A program made the position numbers and the translations under genes. This document shows positions 20,513 to 54,846 of a DNA stretch of 64,000 nt, piece by piece. Numbering within the stretch: position 1 is the first letter of the stretch; every line of letters begins with the position of its first letter. Below the pieces are notes generated by a model that had not been told where the DNA came from, did not search any database, and was given only the letters and a program-made list of their open reading frames with translations. The DNA lies in NCBI RefSeq assembly GCF_002854065.1, contig NZ_CP024147.1; one strand, 5' to 3'. This DNA comes from Escherichia coli. GTDB taxonomy: Bacteria > Pseudomonadota > Gammaproteobacteria > Enterobacterales > Enterobacteriaceae.

Positions 20513-20567
20513 GGTGATGCTGCCAACTTACTGATTTAGTGTATGATGGTGTTTTTGAGGTGCTCCA

Positions 20568-20843
20568 GTGGCTTCTGTTTCTATCAGCTGTCCCTCCTGT
20601 TCAGCTACTGACGGGGTGGTGCGTAACGGCAAAAGCACTGCCGGACATCAGCGCTATCTCTGCTCTCACTGCCGTAAAACATGGCAACTGCAGTTCACTT
20701 ACACCGCTTCTCAACCCGGTACGCACCAGAAAATCATTGATATGGCCATGAATGGCGTTGGATGCCGGGCAACCGCCCGCATTATGGGCGTTGGCCTCAA
20801 CACGATTTTCCGCCATTTAAAAAACTCAGGCCGCAGTCGGTAA
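20568..20843 (+). CDS. insA: IS1 InsA (transposition repressor / N-terminal part of InsAB' transposase)
   Basis: 91-aa [46 protein letters not shown]... with zinc-finger-like Cys pairs. Confidence 0.95.
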
Positions 20844-21265
20844 CCTCGCGCATACAGCCGGGCAGTGACGTCATCGTCTGCGCGGAAATGGACGAACAGT
20901 GGGGATACGTCGGGGCTAAATCGCGCCAGCGCTGGCTGTTTTACGCGTATGACAGGCTCCGGAAGACGGTTGTTGCGCACGTATTCGGTGAACGCACTAT
21001 GGCGACGCTGGGGCGTCTTATGAGCCTGCTGTCACCCTTTGACGTGGTGATATGGATGACGGATGGCTGGCCGCTGTATGAATCCCGCCTGAAGGGAAAG
21101 CTGCACGTAATCAGCAAGCGATATACGCAGCGAATTGAGCGGCATAACCTGAATCTGAGGCAGCACCTGGCACGGCTGGGACGGAAGTCGCTGTCGTTCT
21201 CAAAATCGGTGGAGCTGCATGACAAAGTCATCGGGCATTATCTGAACATAAAACACTATCAATAA
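20762..21265 (+). CDS. insB: IS1 InsB (catalytic part of InsAB' transposase, made by -1 frameshift)
   Basis: 167-aa [19 protein letters not shown]...HYLNIKHYQ in the -1 frame relative to insA. Confidence 0.95.
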
Positions 21266-21280
21266 GTTGGAGTCATTACC

Positions 21281-21631: not shown

Positions 21632-21645
21632 TTGATCATTATCAA
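21632..21645. promoter_or_regulatory. Consensus FNR site upstream of ydhY
   Basis: TTGATCATTATCAA is a perfect match to TTGAT-N4-ATCAA, in the AT-rich region about 200 bp upstream of the ydhY start. Confidence 0.6.
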
Positions 21646-40742: not shown

Positions 40743-41609
40743 ATGGATGTTACCGCAAAATACGAATTGATTGGGTTGATGGCTTATCCTATCCGCCACA
40801 GTTTATCGCCTGAAATGCAGAATAAAGCCTTAGAAAAAGCGGGATTGCCATTTACCTATATGGCCTTCGAAGTGGATAACGATAGCTTTCCCGGAGCAAT
40901 TGAAGGATTAAAAGCTCTAAAAATGCGCGGAACTGGTGTATCAATGCCGAACAAACAACTGGCGTGTGAATATGTTGATGAATTAACGCCAGCAGCCAAA
41001 CTGGTGGGTGCCATCAACACCATCGTTAATGATGATGGCTACCTGCGCGGCTATAACACCGACGGCACGGGCCATATTCGCGCCATTAAAGAGAGCGGTT
41101 TTGATATCAAAGGCAAAACAATGGTGCTGTTAGGGGCCGGAGGTGCCTCAACGGCGATTGGCGCGCAGGGGGCAATTGAAGGTTTAAAAGAAATTAAACT
41201 CTTTAACCGTCGGGATGAGTTCTTCGATAAAGCCCTCGCCTTCGCGCAGCGGGTTAACGAAAACACCGATTGTGTCGTCACGGTTACCGATCTCGCCGAT
41301 CAGCAAGCCTTTGCTGAAGCCCTGGCTTTCGCCGACATTTTAACCAATGGCACAAAAGTGGGTATGAACCCCCTTGAGAATGAATCATTGGTTAATGATA
41401 TCAGTCTGTTACATCCGGGACTGCTGGTCACTGAATGCGTGTATAACCCGCATATGACGAAGTTATTGCAGCAGGCGCAACAAGCTGGTTGCAAAACGAT
41501 TGATGGATACGGCATGTTGTTGTGGCAAGGGGCTGAACAGTTCACGTTATGGACTGGCAAAGATTTCCCTCTGGAATATGTTAAACAGGTCATGGGGTTC
41601 GGTGCCTGA
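40743..41609 (+). CDS. ydiB: Quinate/shikimate 5-dehydrogenase (NAD(P)-dependent)
   Basis: 288-aa ORF with shikimate-dehydrogenase fold motifs ([13 protein letters not shown] Rossmann). Confidence 0.88.
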
Positions 41610-41639
41610 CAGGCTGACCGCGTGCAGAAAGGGTAAAAA

Positions 41640-42398
41640 ATGAAAACCGTAACTGTAAAAGATCTCGTCATTGGTGCGGGCGCACCTAAAATCATCGTCT
41701 CGCTGATGGCGAAAGATATCGCCCGCGTGAAATCCGAAGCTCTCGCCTATCGTGAAGCGGACTTTGATATTCTGGAATGGCGTGTGGACCACTTTGCCGA
41801 CCTCTCCAATGTGGAGTCTGTCATGGCGGCAGCAAAAATTCTCCGTGAAACCATGCCAGAAAAACCGCTGCTGTTTACCTTCCGCAGTGCCAAAGAAGGC
41901 GGCGAGCAGGCGATTTCCACCGAGGCTTATATTGCACTCAATCGTGCAGCCATCGACAGCGGCCTGGTTGATATGATCGATCTGGAGTTATTTACCGGCG
42001 ATGATCAGGTTAAAGAAACCGTCGCCTACGCCCACGCGCATGATGTGAAAGTTGTCATGTCCAACCATGACTTCCATAAAACGCCGGAAGCCGAAGAAAT
42101 CATTGCCCGTCTGCGCAAAATGCAATCCTTCGACGCCGATATTCCTAAGATTGCGCTGATGCCGCAAAGTACCAGCGATGTGCTGACGTTGCTTGCCGCG
42201 ACCCTGGAGATGCAGGAGCAGTATGCCGATCGTCCAATCATCACGATGTCAATGGCAAAAACTGGCGTAATTTCTCGTCTGGCTGGTGAAGTATTTGGCT
42301 CGGCGGCAACTTTTGGTGCGGTAAAAAAAGCCTCTGCGCCAGGGCAAATCTCGGTAAATGATTTGCGCACAGTATTAACTATTTTACATCAGGCATAA
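41640..42398 (+). CDS. aroD: 3-dehydroquinate dehydratase type I
   Basis: 252-aa [55 protein letters not shown]... Confidence 0.93.
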
Positions 42399-42543
42399 GC
42401 AATAATATTTCGGCGGGAATATCCTCCCCCGCCGAACTAAAAAAAATATATTCAACCGTATTTAATAAAAATATTTCGTGAGTCTCTGTGCGCTAATTAT
42501 CCATCTGGCGTAGGGAAAATCACACCTGAATCAGGAATTAACA

Positions 42544-44139
42544 ATGAAACCTGTAAAACCACCTCGTATTAATGGACGAGTGCCGGTCCTGTCGGCACAG
42601 GAAGCGGTGAATTATATTCCCGACGAAGCAACACTTTGTGTGTTAGGCGCTGGCGGCGGTATTCTGGAAGCCACCACGTTAATTACTGCTCTTGCTGATA
42701 AATATAAACAGACTCAAACGCCACGTAATTTATCGATTATTAGTCCAACAGGGCTTGGCGATCGCGCCGACCGTGGTATTAGTCCGCTGGCGCAAGAAGG
42801 TCTGGTTAAATGGGCATTATGCGGTCACTGGGGACAATCGCCGCGTATTTCTGATCTCGCAGAACAAAATAAAATTATTGCTTATAACTATCCACAAGGT
42901 GTACTTACACAAACCTTACGCGCCGCCGCAGCCCACCAGCCTGGTATTATTAGTGATATTGGCATCGGGACATTTGTCGATCCACGCCAGCAAGGCGGCA
43001 AACTGAATGAAGTCACTAAAGAAGACCTGATTAAACTGGTCGAGTTTGATAACAAAGAATATCTCTATTACAAAGCGATTGCGCCAGATATCGCCTTCAT
43101 TCGCGCTACCACCTGCGACAGCGAAGGCTACGCCACTTTTGAAGATGAGGTGATGTATCTCGACGCATTGGTTATTGCCCAGGCGGTGCACAATAACGGC
43201 GGTATTGTGATGATGCAGGTGCAGAAAATGGTTAAGAAAGCCACGCTGCATCCTAAATCTGTCCGTATTCCGGGTTATCTGGTGGATATTGTGGTGGTCG
43301 ATCCGGATCAAACCCAACTGTATGGCGGTGCACCGGTTAACCGCTTTATTTCTGGTGACTTCACCCTTGATGACAGTACCAAACTTAGCCTGCCCCTAAA
43401 CCAACGTAAATTAGTTGCGCGGCGCGCATTATTCGAAATGCGTAAAGGCGCGGTGGGGAATGTCGGCGTCGGTATTGCTGACGGCATTGGCCTGGTCGCT
43501 CGGGAAGAAGGTTGTGCTGATGACTTTATTCTGACGGTAGAAACAGGTCCGATTGGCGGAATTACTTCACAGGGTATCGCCTTTGGCGCGAACGTGAATA
43601 CCCGCGCCATTCTGGATATGACGTCCCAGTTTGATTTTTATCACGGTGGTGGTCTGGATGTTTGTTATTTGAGTTTTGCTGAAGTCGACCAGCACGGTAA
43701 CGTCGGTGTGCATAAATTCAATGGTAAAATCATGGGCACTGGTGGATTTATTGATATCAGTGCCACTTCGAAGAAAATCGTTTTCTGCGGCACATTAACT
43801 GCGGGCAGTTTAAACACAGAAATTACCGACGGCAAATTAAATATCGTCCAGGAAGGACGGGTGAAGAAATTTATTCGGGAACTACCGGAAATTACTTTCA
43901 GCGGAAAAATCGCTCTCGAGCGAGGGCTGGATGTTCGTTATATCACTGAGCGCGCAGTATTCACGCTGAAAGAAGACGGCCTGCATTTAATCGAAATCGC
44001 CCCTGGCGTCGATTTACAAAAAGATATTCTCGACAAAATGGATTTCACCCCAGTAATTTCGCCAGAACTCAAACTGATGGACGAAAGATTATTTATCGAT
44101 GCGGCGATGGGTTTTGTCCTGCCTGAAGCGGCTCATTAA
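42544..44139 (+). CDS. ydiF: Fused alpha/beta family-I CoA-transferase
   Basis: 531-aa ORF with CoA-transferase glutamate-site region; immediately upstream of ydiO. Confidence 0.85.
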   Translation: MKPVKPPRINGRVPVLSAQEAVNYIPDEATLCVLGAGGGILEATTLITALADKYKQTQTPRNLSIISPTGLGDRADRGISPLAQEGLVKWALCGHWGQSPRISDLAEQNKIIAYNYPQGVLTQTLRAAAAHQPGIISDIGIGTFVDPRQQGGKLNEVTKEDLIKLVEFDNKEYLYYKAIAPDIAFIRATTCDSEGYATFEDEVMYLDALVIAQAVHNNGGIVMMQVQKMVKKATLHPKSVRIPGYLVDIVVVDPDQTQLYGGAPVNRFISGDFTLDDSTKLSLPLNQRKLVARRALFEMRKGAVGNVGVGIADGIGLVAREEGCADDFILTVETGPIGGITSQGIAFGANVNTRAILDMTSQFDFYHGGGLDVCYLSFAEVDQHGNVGVHKFNGKIMGTGGFIDISATSKKIVFCGTLTAGSLNTEITDGKLNIVQEGRVKKFIRELPEITFSGKIALERGLDVRYITERAVFTLKEDGLHLIEIAPGVDLQKDILDKMDFTPVISPELKLMDERLFIDAAMGFVLPEAAH

Positions 44140-44152
44140 CAGGAGTATCACG

Positions 44153-45304
44153 ATGGATTTTTCTTTAACTGAAGAACAAGAACTGCTGCTGGCCAGTATT
44201 CGCGAACTGATTACGACTAACTTTCCGGAAGAGTATTTCCGCACCTGCGATCAAAACGGGACATACCCGCGTGAATTTATGCGGGCACTGGCGGATAACG
44301 GTATTTCCATGCTTGGCGTGCCGGAAGAATTTGGTGGTATCCCTGCGGATTACGTCACCCAGATGCTGGCGCTGATGGAAGTGTCAAAATGCGGTGCTCC
44401 GGCATTTTTGATCACCAACGGTCAATGTATTCACAGTATGCGCCGTTTCGGTTCTGCAGAGCAGCTACGTAAAACGGCAGAAAGCACCCTGGAAACCGGC
44501 GACCCCGCCTATGCCCTGGCGTTGACGGAACCAGGTGCTGGCTCAGATAACAACAGCGCCACTACCACTTACACGCGTAAAAACGGCAAGGTTTACATCA
44601 ACGGACAGAAAACTTTTATTACCGGTGCGAAAGAGTACCCGTATATGCTGGTGCTGGCGCGCGATCCTGAACCGAAAGATCCCAAAAAAGCCTTCACCCT
44701 GTGGTGGGTCGACTCCAGTAAGCCCGGCATTAAGATTAACCCGCTGCATAAAATCGGCTGGCATATGCTCAGCACCTGCGAAGTCTATCTCGACAACGTG
44801 GAAGTTGAAGAGAGCGACATGGTGGGCGAAGAAGGAATGGGTTTCCTCAATGTGATGTACAACTTTGAGATGGAGCGCCTGATCAACGCCGCGCGCAGCA
44901 CCGGCTTTGCCGAGTGTGCCTTTGAAGATGCCGCCCGCTATGCCAACCAACGTATCGCTTTTGGTAAACCCATTGGTCATAACCAGATGATCCAGGAAAA
45001 ACTGGCGCTGATGGCGATTAAGATCGACAACATGCGCAACATGGTGCTGAAAGTAGCATGGCAAGCCGATCAGCATCAGTCACTGCGCACCAGCGCGGCG
45101 CTGGCAAAACTGTATTGCGCACGTACCGCAATGGAAGTCATTGATGATGCGATTCAAATCATGGGCGGTCTGGGCTATACCGATGAAGCGCGCGTCTCCC
45201 GCTTCTGGCGTGATGTCCGTTGTGAACGTATTGGCGGCGGTACAGACGAAATTATGATTTACGTAGCAGGTCGGCAAATCCTGAAAGACTATCAGAACAA
45301 ATAA
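44153..45304 (+). CDS. ydiO: Acyl-CoA dehydrogenase family protein
   Basis: 383 aa from MDFSLTEEQELLLASIRELI... (AGGAG RBS at 44141-44145); ACAD fold motifs. Confidence 0.85.
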   Translation: MDFSLTEEQELLLASIRELITTNFPEEYFRTCDQNGTYPREFMRALADNGISMLGVPEEFGGIPADYVTQMLALMEVSKCGAPAFLITNGQCIHSMRRFGSAEQLRKTAESTLETGDPAYALALTEPGAGSDNNSATTTYTRKNGKVYINGQKTFITGAKEYPYMLVLARDPEPKDPKKAFTLWWVDSSKPGIKINPLHKIGWHMLSTCEVYLDNVEVEESDMVGEEGMGFLNVMYNFEMERLINAARSTGFAECAFEDAARYANQRIAFGKPIGHNQMIQEKLALMAIKIDNMRNMVLKVAWQADQHQSLRTSAALAKLYCARTAMEVIDDAIQIMGGLGYTDEARVSRFWRDVRCERIGGGTDEIMIYVAGRQILKDYQNK

Positions 45305-45346
45305 TCTGCAGGCGGCGCAGCTTCTTAACAAACTGCGCCGCCAGAT

Positions 45347-46258
45347 TTACCCGGCAAGACTTACCGGTTGAGGAAATTCAGATAAGATTTCTTGTTCCGC
45401 AAAACAGTTTTTAAATTGCCTGCGGTAATCGCTGGGCGAACAACCGACATGGCGCAAAAACAGTTTGGCAAAGTGATCGACATTTTCATAACCCACACGC
45501 CAGGAGATCTCTGCCTGTGATAATTCAGTATTAGTGAGTAACCATTTCGCTTCCGTCATACGCCGTTGAATAACATAGTTAATAGGGGAAATACGATACT
45601 CTTTGGTAAATTCATGGCAAATATAACTGACGCTGGCACGAAATTTTTTCGATAACTGTTCTAAAGTGATTTTTTCGCGATAATTATTATTTAGATAGAA
45701 AAGAATATCTTTTATCAGAACATCTTTTTTAATATACCCCTGCTCCGAACGATAAGCATTTTTAAAGTTTTCGTAGTAAAGAATTGCTAATGTATAGGCA
45801 AATGCATCCCATAACGAAGATGTTTGGCTATTTTTACTTTGCGGCAAAATCACACTTAGCTCATTAAATAAGGTTTTAATGACTTCTTTTCCCTGCCCCG
45901 CGGCAATTACCGGACAAGAATGCGGTTGCAGTAGATGATTTTCCTCAGCCCCCTGAAACTGAAAGCCGTACAGCGCACAGGTACACGTCGTTGCCGGATC
46001 GTTAACGTCAGAGGCCACCGCATGCAGCCTGCCGCGTTCTATCACCACTATATCATCTGCATGCGCGACATATAACGAAGAATCGATGGTAAACCTTGCC
46101 ACCCCTTTCTTGACGTAAATCAGCTCGGTTTCATTGTCATGAACGTGATGTCCAGACTCCCATTTTGGATCATCGCTAAATGCAAAACGTGAAAGCCGTG
46201 GCGTTTTACCAGCGACAAACAGCGTTTCACTGGCATTATCAAAACAGCGTTGATACAT
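45347..46258 (-). CDS. ydiP: AraC-family transcriptional regulator
   Basis: 303-aa ORF with C-terminal AraC HTH; divergent from ydiQ. Confidence 0.8.
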   Translation of the reverse strand: MYQRCFDNASETLFVAGKTPRLSRFAFSDDPKWESGHHVHDNETELIYVKKGVARFTIDSSLYVAHADDIVVIERGRLHAVASDVNDPATTCTCALYGFQFQGAEENHLLQPHSCPVIAAGQGKEVIKTLFNELSVILPQSKNSQTSSLWDAFAYTLAILYYENFKNAYRSEQGYIKKDVLIKDILFYLNNNYREKITLEQLSKKFRASVSYICHEFTKEYRISPINYVIQRRMTEAKWLLTNTELSQAEISWRVGYENVDHFAKLFLRHVGCSPSDYRRQFKNCFAEQEILSEFPQPVSLAG

Positions 46259-46573
46259 GACAACCTCCCTATTCCATGAGCAAGCAAAAACAATATATGC
46301 CGGATAAAATACGGCGTGTATTGCGGTTATACAACCGCGTTTAGCGAGAGCTAAACAAGATTATTTACACTGAATGCAAGATTGTACGGTCATGGAATAA
46401 CTATATTGCCGCAAATTGCACTTTTGTTTTAGCGATCGCATTTTTTTTGCAAGATTGTTGGCAAGGAAAACAGCTTGCTCCGTCGAAAACCCCGCACCGC
46501 TATCGCACACTATTTTCAGGCCATTTTTACCTTCCATCGGAGATGGTTCCGTATGCGACTCACAGGAGAAATC

Positions 46574-47338
46574 ATGAAAATAATAACCTGCTTTAAGCTG
46601 GTGCCTGAAGAACAGGACATTGTTGTCACTCCAGAATACACCCTGAATTTCGACAATGCCGACGCCAAAATCAGCCAGTTCGATCTCAATGCCATTGAAG
46701 CTGCAAGCCAGCTTGCAACAGATGACGATGAGATAGCCGCGCTGACCGTTGGCGGCTCATTGTTGCAGAACTCGAAAGTGCGCAAAGACGTGCTATCCCG
46801 CGGGCCGCACAGCCTGTATATGGTGCAGGATGCACAACTTGAGCATGCACTGCCTCTCGATACCGCAAAAGCGCTGGCGGCAGCAGTTGAAAAGATCGGC
46901 TTCGATTTACTGATCTTTGGTGAAGGTTCCGGCGACCTTTATGCCCAGCAGGTTGGCTTGCTGGTCGGAGAAATTCTGCAACTTCCGGTGATTAATGCAG
47001 TGAGTGCTATTCAGCGTCAGGGCAATACACTGGTGATTGAACGCACGCTTGAAGATGACGTTGAAGTTATTGAACTCTCTGTTCCAGCCGTGCTCTGCGT
47101 CACCTCCGATATTAACGTGCCACGCATTCCTTCGATGAAAGCCATTCTCGGCGCGGGTAAAAAACCGGTAAATCAGTGGCAGGCAAGTGATATTGGCTGG
47201 AGCCAGAGCGCACCACTTGCTGAACTGACCGGCATTCGCGTACCGCCGCAAACAGAACGTAAGCACATCATTCTCGATAACGATTCGCCGGAGGCCATTG
47301 CCGAGCTGGCGGAACATCTGAAGAAAGCCCTGAACTGA
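46574..47338 (+). CDS. ydiQ: Electron-transfer flavoprotein beta subunit (FixA-like)
   Basis: 254 aa from MKIITCFKLVPEEQDIVV... (AGGAG RBS at 46565-46569); the ORF-track start at 46475 is an extension. Confidence 0.85.
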   Translation: MKIITCFKLVPEEQDIVVTPEYTLNFDNADAKISQFDLNAIEAASQLATDDDEIAALTVGGSLLQNSKVRKDVLSRGPHSLYMVQDAQLEHALPLDTAKALAAAVEKIGFDLLIFGEGSGDLYAQQVGLLVGEILQLPVINAVSAIQRQGNTLVIERTLEDDVEVIELSVPAVLCVTSDINVPRIPSMKAILGAGKKPVNQWQASDIGWSQSAPLAELTGIRVPPQTERKHIILDNDSPEAIAELAEHLKKALN

Positions 47339-47357
47339 AGCCTACGGAGAAGAAACG

Positions 47358-48296
47358 ATGAGTCAATTAAACAGCGTCTGGGTCTTTAGCGATAATCCTG
47401 AACGTTATGCTGAACTGTTTGGCGGCGCTCAGCAATGGGGCCAACAGGTGTATGCCATTGTACAAAATACCGACCAGGTGCAGACAGTTATGCCTTATGG
47501 TCCAAAATGTATTTATGTTCTTGAGCAAAACGACGCGCTGCAACGCACTGAAAATTACGCCGAAAGCATTGCTGCTCTGCTGAAAGATAAACACCCCGCT
47601 ATGTTGCTACTGGCCGCGACGAAACGTGGTAAAGCTCCGGCAGCACGGTTAAGTGTGCAACTGAATGCGGCGCTGGTGAACGATGCCACGGCGGTGGATA
47701 TTGTCGATGGTCACATTTGCGCCGAACACCGGATGTATGGCGGGTTAGCGTTCGCTCAGGAAAAGATCAACAGCTCGCTAGCGATCATTACCCTTGCACC
47801 CGGTGTTCAGGAACCGTGCACCAGTGATACCTCTCATCAGTGCCCGACAGAAACGGTACCTTATGTTGCTCCGCGTCATGAAATTCTCTGTCGCGAGCGC
47901 CGTGCGAAAGCGGCAAGCAGCGTGGACCTGAGCAAAGCAAAACGTGTGGTTGGCGTCGGTCGTGGTCTGGCAGCGCAGGATGACCTGAAAATGGTCCACG
48001 AACTGGCGGCGGTGCTGAATGCTGAAGTCGGCTGTTCACGTCCAATTGCCGAAGGCGAGAACTGGATGGAGCGTGAACGTTATATCGGTGTCTCCGGCGT
48101 GTTGCTGAAATCCGATCTCTACCTGACGCTGGGGATCTCCGGGCAGATCCAACATATGGTTGGCGGCAACGGCGCAAAAGTGATTGTCGCCATCAATAAA
48201 GATAAAAATGCGCCAATCTTCAACTATGCCGACTACGGTCTGGTGGGCGATATCTACAAAGTCGTCCCTACCCTGATTAGCCAGTTGAGCCGCTAA
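47358..48296 (+). CDS. ydiR: Electron-transfer flavoprotein alpha subunit (FixB-like)
   Basis: 312-aa ORF with ETF-alpha FAD-binding C-terminal domain. Confidence 0.85.
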   Translation: MSQLNSVWVFSDNPERYAELFGGAQQWGQQVYAIVQNTDQVQTVMPYGPKCIYVLEQNDALQRTENYAESIAALLKDKHPAMLLLAATKRGKAPAARLSVQLNAALVNDATAVDIVDGHICAEHRMYGGLAFAQEKINSSLAIITLAPGVQEPCTSDTSHQCPTETVPYVAPRHEILCRERRAKAASSVDLSKAKRVVGVGRGLAAQDDLKMVHELAAVLNAEVGCSRPIAEGENWMERERYIGVSGVLLKSDLYLTLGISGQIQHMVGGNGAKVIVAINKDKNAPIFNYADYGLVGDIYKVVPTLISQLSR

Positions 48297-48351
48297 TTCC
48301 CCTTTCAACCACATCTCCCGCTGTAAACGCAGCGGGAAGGGAGCATAACGC

Positions 48352-49641
48352 ATGTCGGATGACAAATTTGATGCCATTGTGGTCGGTGCGGGCGTTGCTG
48401 GTAGCGTTGCCGCACTGGTCATGGCACGAGCCGGGCTGGATGTCCTGGTGATAGAACGCGGCGACAGTGCCGGATGTAAAAACATGACCGGCGGGCGTCT
48501 TTATGCCCACACACTTGAAGAGATTATTCCAGGCTTTGCAGCATCAGCGCCGGTAGAACGCAAGGTCACACGCGAGAAAATCTCCTTCTTAACCGAAGAG
48601 AGCGCCGTTACCCTCGATTTTCACCGCGAGCAACCAGATGTTCCGCAACACGCATCTTATACCGTATTGCGTAATCGTCTGGACCCGTGGTTGATGGAAC
48701 ATGCCGAGCAGGCGGGCGCACAGTTTATCCCGGGAGTTCGCGTCGATGCGCTGGTTCGTGAAGGAAACAAGGTCACTGGCGTCCAGGCTGGGGATGATAT
48801 TCTCGAAGCGAATGTGGTGATTCTGGCTGATGGCGTTAACTCGATGCTTGGCCGTTCGCTGGGAATGGTTCCCGCTTCCGATCCGCATCATTACGCTGTT
48901 GGTGTTAAAGAGGTTATTGGCCTCACACCAGAACAGATCAACGATCGCTTTAATATTACGGGCGAGGAAGGTGCCGCCTGGCTGTTTGCCGGTTCCCCTT
49001 CTGACGGCCTGATGGGTGGCGGATTCCTCTATACCAATAAGGATTCCATATCGTTGGGGCTGGTTTGTGGATTGGGTGATATCGCCCATGCGCAAAAAAG
49101 CGTGCCGCAAATGCTGGAAGATTTTAAACAACACCCCGCCATTCGCCCGCTGATTAGCGGCGGCAAGTTGCTTGAATATTCCGCGCATATGGTGCCGGAA
49201 GGCGGTCTGGCAATGGTGCCGCAACTGGTTAACGAGGGCGTGATGATCGTTGGTGACGCCGCAGGCTTCTGCCTGAATTTGGGTTTTACGGTCCGCGGCA
49301 TGGATTTAGCCATTGCATCGGCTCAGGCTGCCGCCACAACGGTGATCGCCGCCAAAGAACGCGCGGATTTCTCCGCCAGCAGTCTTGCGCAATACAAACG
49401 TGAGCTGGAACAAAGTTGTGTTATGCGCGATATGCAGCATTTTCGCAAGATCCCGACGCTGATGGAAAATCCGCGCCTGTTTAGTCAGTATCCGCGCATG
49501 GTCGCCGACATCATGAACGATATGTTCACCATTGACGGCAAACCAAACCAGCCGGTACGCAAAATGATCATGGGACACGCGAAGAAAATTGGGCTGATCA
49601 ACTTGCTGAAAGATGGCATTAAGGGAGCAACCGCGCTATGA
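48352..49641 (+). CDS. ydiS: ETF:quinone oxidoreductase-like FAD flavoprotein (FixC-like)
   Basis: 429-aa ORF with N-terminal GxGxxG (VVGAGVAGSVAA). Confidence 0.85.
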   Translation: MSDDKFDAIVVGAGVAGSVAALVMARAGLDVLVIERGDSAGCKNMTGGRLYAHTLEEIIPGFAASAPVERKVTREKISFLTEESAVTLDFHREQPDVPQHASYTVLRNRLDPWLMEHAEQAGAQFIPGVRVDALVREGNKVTGVQAGDDILEANVVILADGVNSMLGRSLGMVPASDPHHYAVGVKEVIGLTPEQINDRFNITGEEGAAWLFAGSPSDGLMGGGFLYTNKDSISLGLVCGLGDIAHAQKSVPQMLEDFKQHPAIRPLISGGKLLEYSAHMVPEGGLAMVPQLVNEGVMIVGDAAGFCLNLGFTVRGMDLAIASAQAAATTVIAAKERADFSASSLAQYKRELEQSCVMRDMQHFRKIPTLMENPRLFSQYPRMVADIMNDMFTIDGKPNQPVRKMIMGHAKKIGLINLLKDGIKGATAL

Positions 49642-49931
49642 GCCAGAACGCTACGGTTAACGTCGACATCAAATTAGGCGTCAATAAATTCCATGTTGAT
49701 GAGGGCCACCCGCATATCATTTTGGCGGCAAATCCCGATATCAATGAATTCCGTAAATTAATGAAAGCCTGCCCTGCCGGACTTTATAAGCAGGATGATG
49801 CCGGCAACATTCATTTTGATTCCGCCGGTTGTCTGGAGTGCGGCACCTGTCGGGTGCTGTGCGGTAACACTATTCTCGAACAGTGGCAATATCCCGCAGG
49901 CACCTTCGGTATTGATTTTCGCTACGGCTAA
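49638..49931 (+). CDS. ydiT: Ferredoxin-like protein (FixX-like)
   Basis: 97-aa ORF with Cys cluster CPAGLY...CLECGTCRVLC; 4-nt overlap with ydiS. Confidence 0.85.
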   Translation: MSQNATVNVDIKLGVNKFHVDEGHPHIILAANPDINEFRKLMKACPAGLYKQDDAGNIHFDSAGCLECGTCRVLCGNTILEQWQYPAGTFGIDFRYG

Positions 49932-51253
49932 TCATGCATCCCACAGGCCCGCATCTCGGGCCTGATGTTCTGTTTCGAGAGTCCAAAATGAAAGTGACAT
50001 TAACGTTTAACGAACAACGTCGTGCGGCGTATCGTCAGCAAGGGCTATGGGGCGATGCTTCGCTGGCCGATTACTGGCAGCAGACCGCTCGTGCGATGCC
50101 AGACAAAATTGCCGTGGTCGATAATCATGGAGCATCGTACACCTATAGCGCGCTCGATCACGCCGCGAGCTGTCTGGCAAACTGGATGTTAGCGAAGGGT
50201 ATTGAATCAGGCGATCGCATCGCATTTCAACTGCCAGGCTGGTGTGAATTTACCGTTATCTATCTTGCCTGCCTGAAAATCGGTGCGGTTTCCGTACCGC
50301 TGTTGCCTTCCTGGCGGGAAGCAGAACTGGTATGGGTGCTTAATAAGTGTCAGGCAAAAATGTTCTTTGCACCGACGTTGTTTAAACAAACGCGTCCGGT
50401 AGATTTAATCCTGCCGCTGCAAAATCAGCTTCCACAACTACAACAAATTGTCGGCGTGGACAAACTGGCTCCCGCCACCTCTTCCCTCTCATTAAGTCAG
50501 ATTATCGCCGACAATACCCCACTGACCACGGCGATAACGACCCACGGCGATGAATTAGCCGCGGTGCTGTTTACCTCCGGAACCGAGGGCCTGCCAAAGG
50601 GCGTGATGCTTACGCATAACAATATTCTCGCCAGTGAGCGGGCTTATTGCGCGCGGCTGAATCTGACCTGGCAGGATGTCTTTATGATGCCTGCGCCACT
50701 CGGCCACGCAACGGGCTTTCTGCATGGCGTAACAGCACCATTTTTGATTGGTGCTCGCAGCGTGTTGTTAGATATTTTCACTCCTGATGCGTGTCTCGCG
50801 CTGCTTGAGCAGCAGCGTTGCACCTGTATGCTCGGCGCAACGCCGTTTGTCTATGATCTTTTGAATTTACTAGAGAAACAACCCGCAGACCTTTCAGCGC
50901 TGCGCTTCTTTCTTTGCGGCGGTACCACAATCCCCAAAAAAGTGGCGCGTGAATGCCAGCAGCGCGGCATTAAATTATTAAGTGTTTATGGTTCCACAGA
51001 AAGTTCGCCGCATGCGGTGGTGAATCTCGATGATCCTTTGTCGCGCTTTATGCACACCGATGGTTACGCTGCCGCAGGTGTAGAGATTAAAGTGGTCGAT
51101 GACGCACGCAAGACCTTACCGCCAGGTTGCGAAGGTGAAGAAGCCTCGCGTGGCCCCAATGTGTTTATGGGGTATTTTGATGAACCTGAATTAACCGCCC
51201 GAGCCCTGGATGAAGAAGGCTGGTATTACAGCGGCGATCTCTGCCGTATGGAT

Positions 51254-51262
51254 GAAGCTGGC
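51254..51262. repeat. IS1 target-site duplication, left copy (GAAGCTGGC)
   Basis: Identical 9-mer at 51254-51262 and 52031-52039 flanking the IS1. Confidence 0.9.
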
Positions 51263-51317
51263 GGTGATGCTGCCAACTTACTGATTTAGTGTATGATGGT
51301 GTTTTTGAGGTGCTCCA

Positions 51318-51593
51318 GTGGCTTCTGTTTCTATCAGCTGTCCCTCCTGTTCAGCTACTGACGGGGTGGTGCGTAACGGCAAAAGCACTGCCGGACATCA
51401 GCGCTATCTCTGCTCTCACTGCCGTAAAACATGGCAACTGCAGTTCACTTACACCGCTTCTCAACCCGGTACGCACCAGAAAATCATTGATATGGCCATG
51501 AATGGCGTTGGATGCCGGGCAACCGCCCGCATTATGGGCGTTGGCCTCAACACGATTTTCCGCCATTTAAAAAACTCAGGCCGCAGTCGGTAA
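51318..51593 (+). CDS. insA: IS1 InsA
   Basis: 91-aa ORF identical to the copy A InsA. Confidence 0.95.
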
Positions 51594-52015
51594 CCTCGCG
51601 CATACAGCCGGGCAGTGACGTCATCGTCTGCGCGGAAATGGACGAACAGTGGGGATACGTCGGGGCTAAATCGCGCCAGCGCTGGCTGTTTTACGCGTAT
51701 GACAGGCTCCGGAAGACGGTTGTTGCGCACGTATTCGGTGAACGCACTATGGCGACGCTGGGGCGTCTTATGAGCCTGCTGTCACCCTTTGACGTGGTGA
51801 TATGGATGACGGATGGCTGGCCGCTGTATGAATCCCGCCTGAAGGGAAAGCTGCACGTAATCAGCAAGCGATATACGCAGCGAATTGAGCGGCATAACCT
51901 GAATCTGAGGCAGCACCTGGCACGGCTGGGACGGAAGTCGCTGTCGTTCTCAAAATCGGTGGAGCTGCATGACAAAGTCATCGGGCATTATCTGAACATA
52001 AAACACTATCAATAA
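51512..52015 (+). CDS. insB: IS1 InsB
   Basis: 167-aa ORF identical to the copy A InsB. Confidence 0.95.
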
Positions 52016-52030
52016 GTTGGAGTCATTACC

Positions 52031-52039
52031 GAAGCTGGC
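52031..52039. repeat. IS1 target-site duplication, right copy (GAAGCTGGC)
   Basis: Matches 51254-51262 exactly. Confidence 0.9.
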
Positions 52040-52436
52040 TATATAAAAATAACCGGGCGCAAGAAAGATATTATTGTCCGCGGCGGCGAAAATATTAGCA
52101 GCCGTGAAGTGGAAGATATTTTATTACAGCATCCTAAAATTCACGATGCTTGTGTGGTTGCAATGCCCGATGAACGCTTAGGTGAACGTTCATGCGCTTA
52201 TGTCGTGCTGAAAGCACCGCATCATTCATTATCGCTGGAAGATGTAGTGGCTTTTTTTAGCCGTAAACGGGTCGCAAAATATAAATACCCTGAACATATC
52301 GTGGTAATCGAAAAACTACCGCGCACTGCCTCAGGTAAAATACAAAAGTTTTTGTTAAGAAAAGATATTATGCGGCGATTAACGCAGGATGTCTGTGAAG
52401 AGATTGAATAAGTTTCATCTTCGGGGGTCACATAAC

Positions 52437-52477
52437 CCCGGCGACAAAACGCCGCCGGGTATTTATTTTATTTCTTC
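52437..52477 (+). terminator. Putative intrinsic terminator after fadK, overlapping the ppsA stop
   Basis: Stem CCCGGCG / CGCCGGG followed by TATTTATTTTATTTCTT. Confidence 0.5.
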
Positions 52478-54846
52478 AGTTCAGCCAGGCTTAACCAGGT
52501 TTGCACCACGGTGTCCGGATTCAGAGACAGGCTATCGATCCCCTCTTCCATCAACCATGCGGCAAAATCTTCGTGGTCGGACGGACCCTGACCGCAAATC
52601 CCGACATATTTGCCCTGTTTCTTCGCGGCACGAATCGCCATCGACAGCAGTGCTTTCACCGCATCGTTGCGCTCATCGAACAATTCAGACACCACGCCGG
52701 AGTCACGATCCAGACCGAGCGCCAGCTGCGTCATATCGTTTGAGCCAATTGAGAAGCCGTCGAAATATTCGAGGAACTGCTCGGCCAGCAAGGCGTTGGA
52801 CGGGATTTCACACATCATGATGATTTTCAGCCCGTTCTCACCACGCTTCAGCCCCTGACGCGCCAGTTCCTCAACCACCGCTTTCGCCTGATCTACGGTA
52901 CGCACGAACGGGATCATGATCTCAACGTTGGTCAGCCCCATGTCGTTGCGCACACGTTTCACTGCTTCGCACTCCAGCGCGAAACAGTCGCGGAAGCTGT
53001 CGGAAACATAGCGGCCCGCGCCACGGAAGCCGAGCATCGGGTTCTCTTCATCTGGCTCGTAACGCTCACCACCGACCAGGTTGGCATATTCGTTCGATTT
53101 AAAATCAGAGAGCCGGACAATGACGCGCTTCGGATAAAACGCGGCACCCAGCGTCGCGATCCCTTCAGTCAGACGACCAACGTAAAATTCACGCGGAGAA
53201 TCAAAACCTTTCATCATCTCGCGGATTTCGTTTTGCAACTGCGGTTCCTGATCGTCAAACTCAAGCAGTGCGCGTGGGTGGACGCCAATCATACGGTTGA
53301 TGATAAATTCCAGACGCGCAAGTCCCACGCCTTCGTTCGGCAGACAGGCGAAGTCGAAAGCTCGGTCCGGGTTACCGACGTTCATCATCACTTTCAACGG
53401 CAGATCCGGCATCGTTTCTACGCTGGAGCTTTTCACGCTAAATTCCAGCAACTCCGCATAGACGTAACCGGTATCACCTTCGGCACAAGAAACAGTGACG
53501 TTCTCACCGTCTTTCATCCGTTCTGTTGCATCACCACAGCCCACTACCGCCGGAATGCCCAGTTCACGAGCGATGATCGCCGCGTGACAGGTACGACCGC
53601 CACGGTTGGTGACGATGGCAGATGCTTTCTTCATGATCGGTTCCCAGTCCGGGTCGGTCATGTCAGTGACCAGCACGTCACCAGGTTCGATGCGGTTCAT
53701 TTCGCTGATGTCATGGATGACTTTCACCGGACCCGCACCGATGCGATGACCGATAGCACGGCCTTCGGCGATAATCTTACCCTGTGAATGCAGCGTATAA
53801 CGCTCCATGACCTGACCGCGTGAGCGCACGGTTTCCGGACGCGCCTGCACAATGAACAGTTTGCCGGTGTGGCCATCTTTCGCCCACTCAATATCCATCG
53901 GGCGACCGTAGTGTTTCTCAATTTGTACGGCCTGTTTTGCCAGTTCCTGCACTTCTTCGTTGGTCAGCGAGAAGATGTCACGCTGTTCCTGCGGTACGTC
54001 TTCGATTTTAACCTGCTTGCCGTGCTCCTGGGTCGGCGCGTAAACCATGCGGATTTTTTTCGACCCCATGGTGCGGCGCACGATAGCCGGGCGATTCGCC
54101 GCCAGTGTCGGTTTATGCACGTAAAACTCATCCGGGTTAACCGCACCCTGCACGACCATCTCACCAAGGCCCCATGCGGAAGTGATAAACACCACCTGGT
54201 CAAAGCCGGATTCGGTATCAATGGAGAACATCACGCCAGATGATGCGAGGTCAGAGCGCACCATCCGTTGAACACCAGCGGAGAGCGCCACACCACGGTG
54301 ATCGTAACCCTGGTGCACACGATAAGAGATGGCGCGATCGTTAAACAGAGAAGCAAATACATGTTTCACTGCCACGAGAACGGCGTCAAAACCCTGAACG
54401 TTGAGGAAGGTTTCCTGCTGACCGGCAAAAGAAGCGTCCGGCATATCTTCTGCGGTGGCGGAGGAGCGCACCGCAAAAGAGGCGTTTTCGTCATCGGCGG
54501 AAAGCTGTGCATAGGCTTCGCGGATGGCGTTTTCCAGCTCAGGCTGGAAGGGAGTGTCGATAATCCACTGGCGGATTTGCGTGCCCGCTTTCGCAAGCTG
54601 AGTAACATCGTCAATATCCGTTTTATCCAGCAGTTCATAAATGCGCTGGTTTACGCCGCTTTGGTCCAGAAACTGGTTAAACGCGTCGGCGGTTGTGGCG
54701 AAACCATTCGGAACGGAAACACCCATTCCGGAAAGGTTAGTAATCATTTCACCCAGGGAGGCATTTTTGCCCCCAACCCTGTCTACATCATTCATGCCGA
54801 GTTGGTTATACCAAAGCACCAGCGGTGACGAGCCATTGTTGGACAT
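52468..54846 (-). CDS. ppsA: Phosphoenolpyruvate synthase
   Basis: 792-aa [37 protein letters not shown]... with PEP-utilising phosphohistidine domain. Confidence 0.96.

Follow-up and report, generated by a model that had tools for sequence, protein, structure and literature searches.

The ydiF-ydiO, ydiP and ydiQRST-fadK cluster of Escherichia coli: a CaiA-FixABCX paralogue set without the signatures of bifurcating electron-transfer flavoproteins, and with fadK split by IS1

Electron-transfer flavoproteins (ETFs) of the Fix type have been described in several systems, and we compare these here with the ydi genes of Escherichia coli as they stand in a 64,000-nucleotide stretch of contig NZ_CP024147.1 (assembly GCF_002854065.1; hereafter the window), in which positions 42544-52411 were confirmed to be the known ydiF-ydiO / ydiP / ydiQRST-fadK cluster. 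The caiTABCDE/fixABCX locus of E. coli shows the same A-B-C-X gene order and divergent arrangement as ydi, and the group 2 ETF motifs have been lost in both. The two loci differ in their coenzyme A (CoA) transferase (caiB is annotated as gamma-butyrobetainyl-CoA:carnitine CoA-transferase, whereas YdiF belongs to family I), in their regulator (CaiF in cai/fix, the AraC-type YdiP in ydi) and in the direction proposed for them, which is reduction in cai/fix and oxidation in ydi; moreover, the ydi cluster is without a transporter or hydratase gene. With the bifurcating FixABCX of Azotobacter vinelandii and EtfABCX of Thermotoga maritima (PDB 7KOE) the ydi genes share four homologous subunits and a quinone-linked C subunit; in contrast to these, YdiQ/R lack RxGV, GxxSPTxV and the Arg of RPxFGG, and YdiT lacks one cysteine cluster. 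The logic proposed for ydi is the same as that of the mitochondrial and proteobacterial ETF with its ETF:ubiquinone oxidoreductase (ETF-QO), namely an acyl-CoA dehydrogenase (ACAD), an ETF with one flavin adenine dinucleotide (FAD), one [4Fe-4S] cluster, a further FAD and quinone, except that the iron-sulphur domain is a separate protein (YdiT) in ydi and that YdiQ/R are not group 1 ETFs.

In Salmonella enterica, the butyrate utilisation operon ydiQRSTD is the orthologous operon, ydiD being fadK; it has been deleted or degraded in host-restricted serovars, whereas the loss in the window is limited to IS1 in the ligase gene. A 2018 study by Bronner, as cited in reviews, reportedly found the anaerobic use of butyrate to depend on ydiQRSTD in S. 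Typhimurium and to have been lost from S. Typhi, and the module is also said to have been studied by Gulevich in 2016. The genes ydiFO, ydiQRST and fadHIJK have been described as an anaerobic beta-oxidation pathway that requires an external electron acceptor and is degraded in extraintestinal Salmonella (PMC3967523), and PMC9530198 and PMC6249985 give Salmonella ydiQRSTD as required for anaerobic butyrate use with electron acceptors. According to a 2022 review (PMC9329746), fadK allows an E. coli fadD mutant to grow on fatty acids, which can no longer be used once fadD and fadK are both mutated, and no FadR or CRP control of fadK is found; a table in PMC9962212 lists ydiQRST-fadK as a transcription unit. 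Literature and annotation already cover the cluster, the role proposed for it and its paralogy with Fix; a whole-word literature search found no dedicated biochemical study of YdiR, YdiS or YdiT.

The locus is probably a conserved E. coli module for the oxidation of short/medium-chain acyl-CoA, working as a plain non-bifurcating chain. Fatty acid would be activated by the ligase FadK or the CoA-transferase YdiF, YdiO would take two electrons from the acyl-CoA and pass them to the single electron-transfer FAD of YdiQ/YdiR, and from YdiQR they would travel to the single [4Fe-4S] cluster of YdiT, on to the YdiS FAD and then to the membrane quinone pool and the anaerobic terminal reductases. The cofactor logic would be that of a split ETF and ETF:quinone oxidoreductase pair, not that of the bifurcating FixABCX/EtfABCX machine, which depends on reduced nicotinamide adenine dinucleotide (NADH). 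YdiP is likely to be a local regulator that acts on the conserved divergent control region.

Gene content was read from the open reading frame listing, from megablast against 5426 complete E. coli genomes and from curated family models (NCBIfam, Pfam), all in agreement. The genes named in the original prediction were each confirmed in place by curated protein-family models, and the AraC-type regulator that it placed divergently within the cluster was borne out by Pfam domains and strand layout. The features up to ydiT are as follows.

42544-44139, plus strand: ydiF, family I acyl-CoA:acetate/3-ketoacid CoA-transferase, 531 residues, intact (Pfam CoA_trans, 2e-49).
44153-45304, plus strand: ydiO, acyl-CoA dehydrogenase / enoyl-CoA reductase, 383 residues, intact (NCBIfam PRK12341, 786.7 bits; cutoff 537).
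45347-46258, minus strand: ydiP, AraC-family regulator, 303 residues (Pfam AraC_binding/Cupin_2 and HTH_18).
46259-46573, no strand: ydiP-ydiQ divergent control region, 315 bp, unusually conserved on genome comparison.
46574-47338, plus strand: ydiQ, ETF small (beta, FixA-like) subunit, 254 residues (NCBIfam PRK12342, 499 bits; cutoff 338).
47358-48296, plus strand: ydiR, ETF large (alpha, FixB-like) subunit, 312 residues (NCBIfam PRK11916, 685 bits, cutoff 528; Pfam ETF and ETF_alpha).
48352-49641, plus strand: ydiS, FixC-type FAD flavoprotein with an ETF-QO ubiquinone-binding domain, 429 residues (NCBIfam PRK10015, 973 bits; cutoff 466).
49638-49931, plus strand: ydiT, FixX-type ferredoxin-like protein, 97 residues (best match the FixX model, 144 bits, under its 166-bit cutoff).

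The gene ydiP, a name also carried in E. coli genome annotations, is convergent to ydiO and divergent to ydiQ over 315 bp. In 5345 of the 5426 complete genomes (~98%) a single place covers 80% or more of the locus, and K-12 is colinear with the window over all 64 kb, at 98.3-99.1% identity; the grouping of the ydi genes is therefore not due to chance. Gene set, order and orientation are identical to those of K-12 (b1694-b1701), with 98.3% nucleotide identity over the locus, 1-7 amino-acid differences per protein (three of them in YdiF) and an identical ydiP-ydiQ intergenic region. The two differ in the aroD-ydiF spacer (145 against 142 bp, a 3-bp length change), in fadK, which IS1 splits at codon 425/426 in the window, and in ydiR, which there carries four lineage-specific substitutions. 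The closest complete E. coli genome is 99.2% identical across the locus. YdiF matched the structures PDB 2AHU/2AHV/2AHW ('putative enzyme ydiF') over its full length, with 1187 bits.

To place YdiQ and YdiR among ETFs, reference small and large subunits with their Garcia Costas group labels (G1-G5) were taken from the supplement of PMC10734219 and aligned with YdiQ/YdiR and with FixA/FixB of K-12; that set holds no E. coli YdiQR or FixAB, so the group assignment is our own. Three conserved motifs (RxGV, GxxSPTxV and RPxFGG) lie around the bifurcating FAD, and R140 of the T. maritima large subunit, the Arg of RPxFGG, is essential for bifurcation / ferredoxin reduction (PMC10734219); group 2 ETFs have two FAD per heterodimer and NADH dehydrogenase activity (PMC5861303). 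The second FAD site typical of bifurcating ETFs had been named in the original prediction as the feature to look for in YdiQ/YdiR, and all three of its group 2 signatures turned out to be absent. At the small-subunit RxGV (T. maritima Arg38, beside the bifurcating FAD), YdiQ reads FDNA and K-12 FixA reads FSKA, as against R-(E/D/Q)-G-V in 8/8 group 2 references. The GxxSPTxV loop of the small subunit (T. maritima Pro239 and Val242), which wraps the bifurcating FAD, is removed from both YdiQ and FixA by a 7-residue deletion that leaves no SPT, as in group 1 ETFs. In the large subunit, the RPxFGG stretch is E-H-R-M-Y-G-G in YdiR and K-H-M-V-Y-G-G in FixB, with His in the Arg column of both; there is a small chance that the YdiR alignment is off by one residue at this column, but in FixB the motif cannot be recovered by any shift. 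The YdiQ/YdiR alignments show conservation of the partner-recognition loop and of the electron-transfer FAD region (CSRP, GISGQIQH).

Profiles for G1, G2 and G3 were built from the labelled references and scored with the left-out member excluded (leave-one-out), and gave the following values.

YdiQ: G1 63 bits, G2 107 bits (106.5), G3 149 bits; true group 2 small subunits score 220-352 bits on G2.
YdiR: G1 127 bits, G2 188 bits, G3 210 bits; true group 2 large subunits score 374-473 bits on G2.

Both subunits scored best on the G3 profile, inside the range of G3 members. Left-out group 1 small subunits reached 348-362 bits on the G1 profile, against 63 for YdiQ, and the G1 score of YdiR is indicative only, the large-subunit group 1 profile having been built from two sequences. 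By their sequences, YdiQ and YdiR thus appear to stand outside the group 2 (bifurcating) ETFs, and they do not look like group 1 (canonical) ETFs either, which for YdiR is an indication only.

These data bear on the idea that ydi encodes a complex like clostridial Bcd-EtfAB or Azotobacter FixABCX, bifurcating or confurcating, in which a second FAD in YdiQR would oxidise NADH and split the electron pair between enoyl-CoA/quinone and a low-potential ferredoxin/flavodoxin. The A-B-C-X gene set is the same as that of bifurcating FixABCX/EtfABCX, the best PDB sequence matches of both YdiQ and YdiR come from group 2 (CarD, LctB/C, C. difficile Etf), and YdiQRST have been taken as ETF/ferredoxin partners of YdiO in the metabolic-engineering literature. 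However, identity to group 2 subunits is only 23-31%, the signatures are gone together with the flavin-wrapping loop, the G2 scores fall far below the at least 220 and at least 374 bits of true members, YdiT is without three of the four cysteines of one cluster, and E. coli FixA/B have the same losses. We consider such a complex very unlikely here. The parallel with Fix-type ETF systems drawn in the original prediction stood as far as homology to E. coli FixABCX is concerned (43-63% identity) and failed for the bifurcating Fix/Etf systems, by the refuting condition on the FAD motif that the prediction itself had set; 'FixABCX-like' is accordingly a right label for the ydi genes when it refers to the E. 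coli carnitine Fix set, and not when it refers to the nitrogen-fixation bifurcating complex.

YdiS carries the Pfam domains DAO/FAD_binding_3 and ETFQO_UQ-bd (3e-9), and matches both chain C of PDB 7KOE (T. maritima EtfC; 5.7e-71) and pig ETF-QO (2GMH; 1.2e-24). YdiT matches chain D of 7KOE (T. maritima EtfX) at 2.3e-14, with the first cysteine group of EtfX missing, and no YdiT-specific family model was matched in the NCBIfam profile search. Its five cysteines (CP plus CxxCxxCxxxC) compare with four in K-12 FixX and nine, in two groups, in T. maritima EtfX, these counts referring to ligands inspected and not to metal content. EtfX of T. maritima carries two [4Fe-4S] clusters (PMC10734219); YdiT does not have the two-cluster pattern of the X subunit of the bifurcating holoenzyme, and its cysteine ligands would serve one [4Fe-4S] cluster only. 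The sequence features of a split ETF:quinone oxidoreductase are all present, namely an FAD Rossmann fold, an ETF-QO ubiquinone-binding domain and a four-cysteine partner. From these domains, matches and cysteine pattern, YdiS and YdiT would between them provide ligands for the FAD, the single cluster and the quinone site expected of a split ETF-QO.

The N-terminal, middle and C-terminal ACAD domains of YdiO (Pfam PF02771, PF02770, PF00441) were all above cutoff. At least 38 solved ACADs match it at E<=1e-40, the closest solved relatives being short-chain ACADs, and its second-best family model is crotonobetainyl-CoA dehydrogenase CaiA (452 bits). YdiO and CaiA have Gly at the catalytic-Glu site of the medium-chain and short-chain acyl-CoA dehydrogenases, an observation made by eye that serves as a lead. 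In M-E-R-L, both have a Glu at what we take, again by eye and as a lead, to be the position of the isovaleryl-CoA dehydrogenase base. Identity to the K-12 cai/fix proteins is 48% for YdiO-CaiA, 57% for YdiQ-FixA, 43% for YdiR-FixB, 61% for YdiS-FixC and 63% for YdiT-FixX. In the enterobacterial YdiQRST/FixABCX paralogue family (PRK12342, PRK11916, PRK10015, PRK15449), the cutoffs were exceeded by YdiQ, YdiR and YdiS, with YdiT under the FixX cutoff, and the A-B-C-X order lies beside an ACAD-family gene. YdiO and YdiQRST are, judging from these comparisons, the paralogue set of E. coli CaiA-FixABCX, and because of this paralogy the ydi chain could in principle run in reverse.

The main rival to oxidation is a reductive, respiratory module like CaiA-FixABCX, in which electrons would pass from quinol through YdiS, YdiT and YdiQR to YdiO, there reducing an enoyl-CoA-type substrate; this might derive from an unsaturated acid for which YdiP is the sensor and YdiF or FadK the activating enzyme. 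Besides the CaiA match and the four Fix paralogues, the locus has its own CoA-transferase, ligase and AraC-type sensor, as a dedicated substrate pathway would have. On the other hand, butyrate use through Salmonella ydiQRSTD depends on external electron acceptors and so speaks for oxidation, E. coli fadK supports the fatty-acid growth of a fadD mutant, and YdiO contributed little as a crotonyl-CoA reductase in vivo (PMC13126070). Overall, we regard a reductive role as unlikely, and a bifurcating complex or a decaying remnant as less likely still.

With regard to transcription, the spacings are 13 bp for ydiF-ydiO, 19 bp for ydiQ-ydiR, 55 bp for ydiR-ydiS, a 4-bp overlap for ydiS-ydiT, and 56 bp or 2 bp for ydiT-fadK depending on the fadK start chosen; they are compatible with two putative operons, ydiFO and ydiQRST-fadK. 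A promoter and terminator consensus scan of 42300-52600 gave counts at shuffle expectation (12 vs 12.3 and 14 vs 13.0). The ydiR-ydiS spacer (48297-48351, 55 bp) shows 0 differences from a 91%-identical Escherichia and carries a 9-bp hairpin (CCCGCUGU.../...GCAGCGGG) that immediately precedes the ribosome-binding site of ydiS, the folding of 48290-48360 giving z = -2.6.

The ydiP-ydiQ region is conserved beyond its surroundings. It shows 0 differences from K-12 and from strain 914033, and is at least 99% identical in 5248 of 5366 genomes (98%), in comparison with 824/5355 and 1006/5367 (15-19%) for flanking coding segments of equal length. Against the 91%-identical Escherichia it is 3.5% divergent, as compared with 5.8-11.8% for the genes and 24.8% for the aroD-ydiF spacer. 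Within it lie an exact 11-mer direct repeat, TGCAAGATTGT, at 46375-46385 and 46448-46458 (73 bp apart), and three hairpins at 46292-46356. Folding of the full 315-nt region on the plus strand gave z = -3.3, mostly from the three hairpins near the ydiP end, and the 147 nt upstream of ydiQ showed no excess RNA structure (z = +1.3). An Rfam scan of 41500-53000 at E<=1 returned one chance hit resembling a small nucleolar RNA and nothing in the ydiP-ydiQ region. The paired TGCAAGATTGT repeat was confined, in an exact-pattern scan of one genome per species, to Escherichia, apart from a few chance matches in unrelated metagenome-assembled genomes. We propose that regulation may make dense use of this spacer, with the repeats as candidate sites for YdiP. 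A search of the region for FNR and CRP consensus found no site with fewer than two mismatches, which sits well with the reductive module discussed above. Some pipelines call a 58-residue open reading frame on the minus strand at 46361-46537.

Several points weigh against the oxidative, non-bifurcating chain that we favour. CaiA, the closest characterised paralogue of YdiO, works as a reductase, and butyrate formation by engineered strains changed little when ydiO was deleted or overexpressed (PMC13126070). The 2022 review states that the function of YdiQR is without experimental evidence and doubts the anaerobic specificity of FadK (PMC9329746); in view of its statement on YdiQR, the remark in the original prediction that the electron path is not settled was a fair one. 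Group 3 ETFs are heterogeneous and mostly uncharacterised, so the absence of group 2 motifs is no proof that a second flavin is absent, and in the alignment the nucleotide-binding stretch AQQVG of YdiQ is nearer to group 2 (TAQVGP) than to group 1. As the promoter and terminator scans were at chance level, they do not establish the operon structure. It is also conceivable, though quite unlikely in our judgement, that the YdiQRST / E. coli-FixABCX clade is a distinct, uncharacterised ETF-quinone system (its ETF group 3-like, its X subunit with a single cluster and its second nucleotide site remodelled) whose expression is under an unrecognised element in the ydiP-ydiQ region; examples would be a quinol:enoyl-CoA oxidoreductase chain that can run both ways, or one that uses an unconventional second cofactor.

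The disruption of fadK claimed in the original prediction was fully supported. The features at this end of the locus are the following.

49988-51262, plus strand: fadK 5' fragment, codons 1-425, adenylation domain (NCBIfam PRK06087 profile positions 1-425/548; Pfam AMP-binding).
51263-52030, plus strand: IS1 insertion, 768 bp, in fadK orientation (from the sequence; Pfam Zn_ribbon_InsA and HTH_Tnp_IS1).
51254-51262 (left copy) and 52031-52039 (right copy), no strand: 9-bp target-site duplication GAAGCTGGC (script check).
52031-52411, plus strand: fadK 3' fragment, codons 423-548, hinge and C-terminal domain (NCBIfam PRK06087 profile positions 449-547; Pfam AMP-binding_C).
52437-52473, plus strand: terminator-like hairpin (CCCGGCG, 9-nt loop, CGCCGGG, then a T-rich tail) between convergent fadK and ppsA, read from the sequence.

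The element has all the features of IS1: its length of 768 bp, terminal inverted repeats matching at 18/23 positions (script check), insA at 51318-51593 with the insB frame at 51512-52015, and the 9-bp duplication. Removal of IS1 and one copy of GAAGCTGGC restores a 548-residue FadK frame with no stops and five residues off K-12. As it stands, the interrupted frame runs into IS1 and stops at 51287-51289, giving 425 FadK residues plus eight foreign ones, and the 3' fragment is cut off from promoter and start codon. The adenylation and C-terminal domains, which are contiguous in an ANL-type acyl-CoA synthetase, are both present here with IS1 between them; since the detached 3' fragment carries the hinge and C-terminal domain (AMP-binding_C), no ligase activity is expected. 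The FadK ligase route thus appears to be dead in this strain, with YdiF and the remaining module intact. No downstream polar effect is expected because fadK is the last gene ahead of convergent ppsA. The hairpin at 52437-52473 was not returned by the terminator scan, presumably on account of its loop of more than 8 nt. As for the fadK start, K-12 annotates an upstream ATG at 49934 (566 residues), while the NCBIfam model aligns from residue 1 of the 548-residue form. A GC-rich hairpin, CAGGCCCGCATCTCGGGCCTG, is situated at 49944-49964 between ydiT and the 548-residue start, and would fall inside the coding sequence under the K-12 start at 49934.

A 200-nt probe spanning the fadK/IS1 junction was covered to at least 80% at one place in 7 of the 5426 genomes, and unrelated E. 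coli strains carry IS1 at exactly the same fadK position and orientation. In one of these, strain VTB97420v, the IS1 is a variant with 760/768 identical positions, the target duplication has a single-nucleotide polymorphism, and the flanks are 97.7% identical. Owing to these differences in element, duplication and flanks, the fadK site would seem to be a recurrent IS1 insertion hot spot rather than a case of shared descent. A second IS1, 768/768 identical to the fadK copy, is located at 20513-21280 of the window with an 8-bp duplication, TGTGCCGC; it lies within ydhY, the gene that opens the ydhYVWXUT oxidoreductase operon, and a perfect FNR consensus, TTGATCATTATCAA, is present at 21632-21645, immediately upstream of ydhY.

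The exact YdiR variant of the window was indexed in 131 blocks of an assembly collection, and among the six loci shown with it, four were draft contigs ending at the fadK/IS1 junction. The two gene-disrupting, identical IS1 copies, the best identity of 99.2% and the YdiR variant blocks fit a clonal lineage, rich in IS1, that lies outside the E. coli genome set, for example Shigella. Assembly GCA_900449015.1, which has the same YdiR variant and fadK::IS1, has ydiF called at 503 instead of 531 residues and ppsA called in two pieces; this suggests either further decay in a close relative or assembly errors.

The other ydi genes show whether the lesion extends beyond the ligase. The seven non-fadK genes are full length, without stops or frameshifts, and their ratio of nonsynonymous to synonymous rates (dN/dS) against K-12 is 0.01-0.37, the value for ydiO being 0.01. 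Changes on the window branch were polarised with K-12, strain 914033 and one 91%-identical Escherichia. On that branch, ydiR has 4 nonsynonymous to 1 synonymous change, in comparison with 3 : 22 for the six other ydi genes together, and the excess of amino-acid change in ydiR has a hypergeometric p of ~0.006 (hand calculation). Its lineage-specific changes are A41V, A43T, L94P and A305T, of which L94P hits a Leu kept in most reference ETFs in the alignment; ydiO, ydiP, ydiQ and ydiT have none. This gives a weak hint of relaxed constraint, and on ydiR only.

It could be argued from fadK::IS1 that the pathway is disused in this lineage and that the other genes are drifting to pseudogenes. The insertion appears fixed in the lineage, as judged from the 131 blocks and the four of six junction-ending loci, the identical IS1 in ydhY disrupts another gene of the window, and the changes in ydiR include one at a conserved Leu. 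Nevertheless, the seven other genes are complete, with the dN/dS values given above, four of them are free of lineage-specific amino-acid change, the control region is unchanged, and acyl-CoA would still be available through YdiF and FadD. A decaying remnant is, in our opinion, highly improbable.

As a discovery, the present finding carries little weight, being real but ordinary. The sequence test counts against the often-assumed bifurcating model of YdiO-YdiQRST, which is relevant to users of reverse beta-oxidation, and the extreme conservation of the ydiP-ydiQ region makes it a defined target for regulatory experiments. Furthermore, fadK::IS1 parallels the ydiQRSTD (butyrate utilisation) loss reported in host-restricted Salmonella, and in view of that parallel it could plausibly mark a change of niche in this lineage, which is rich in IS1.

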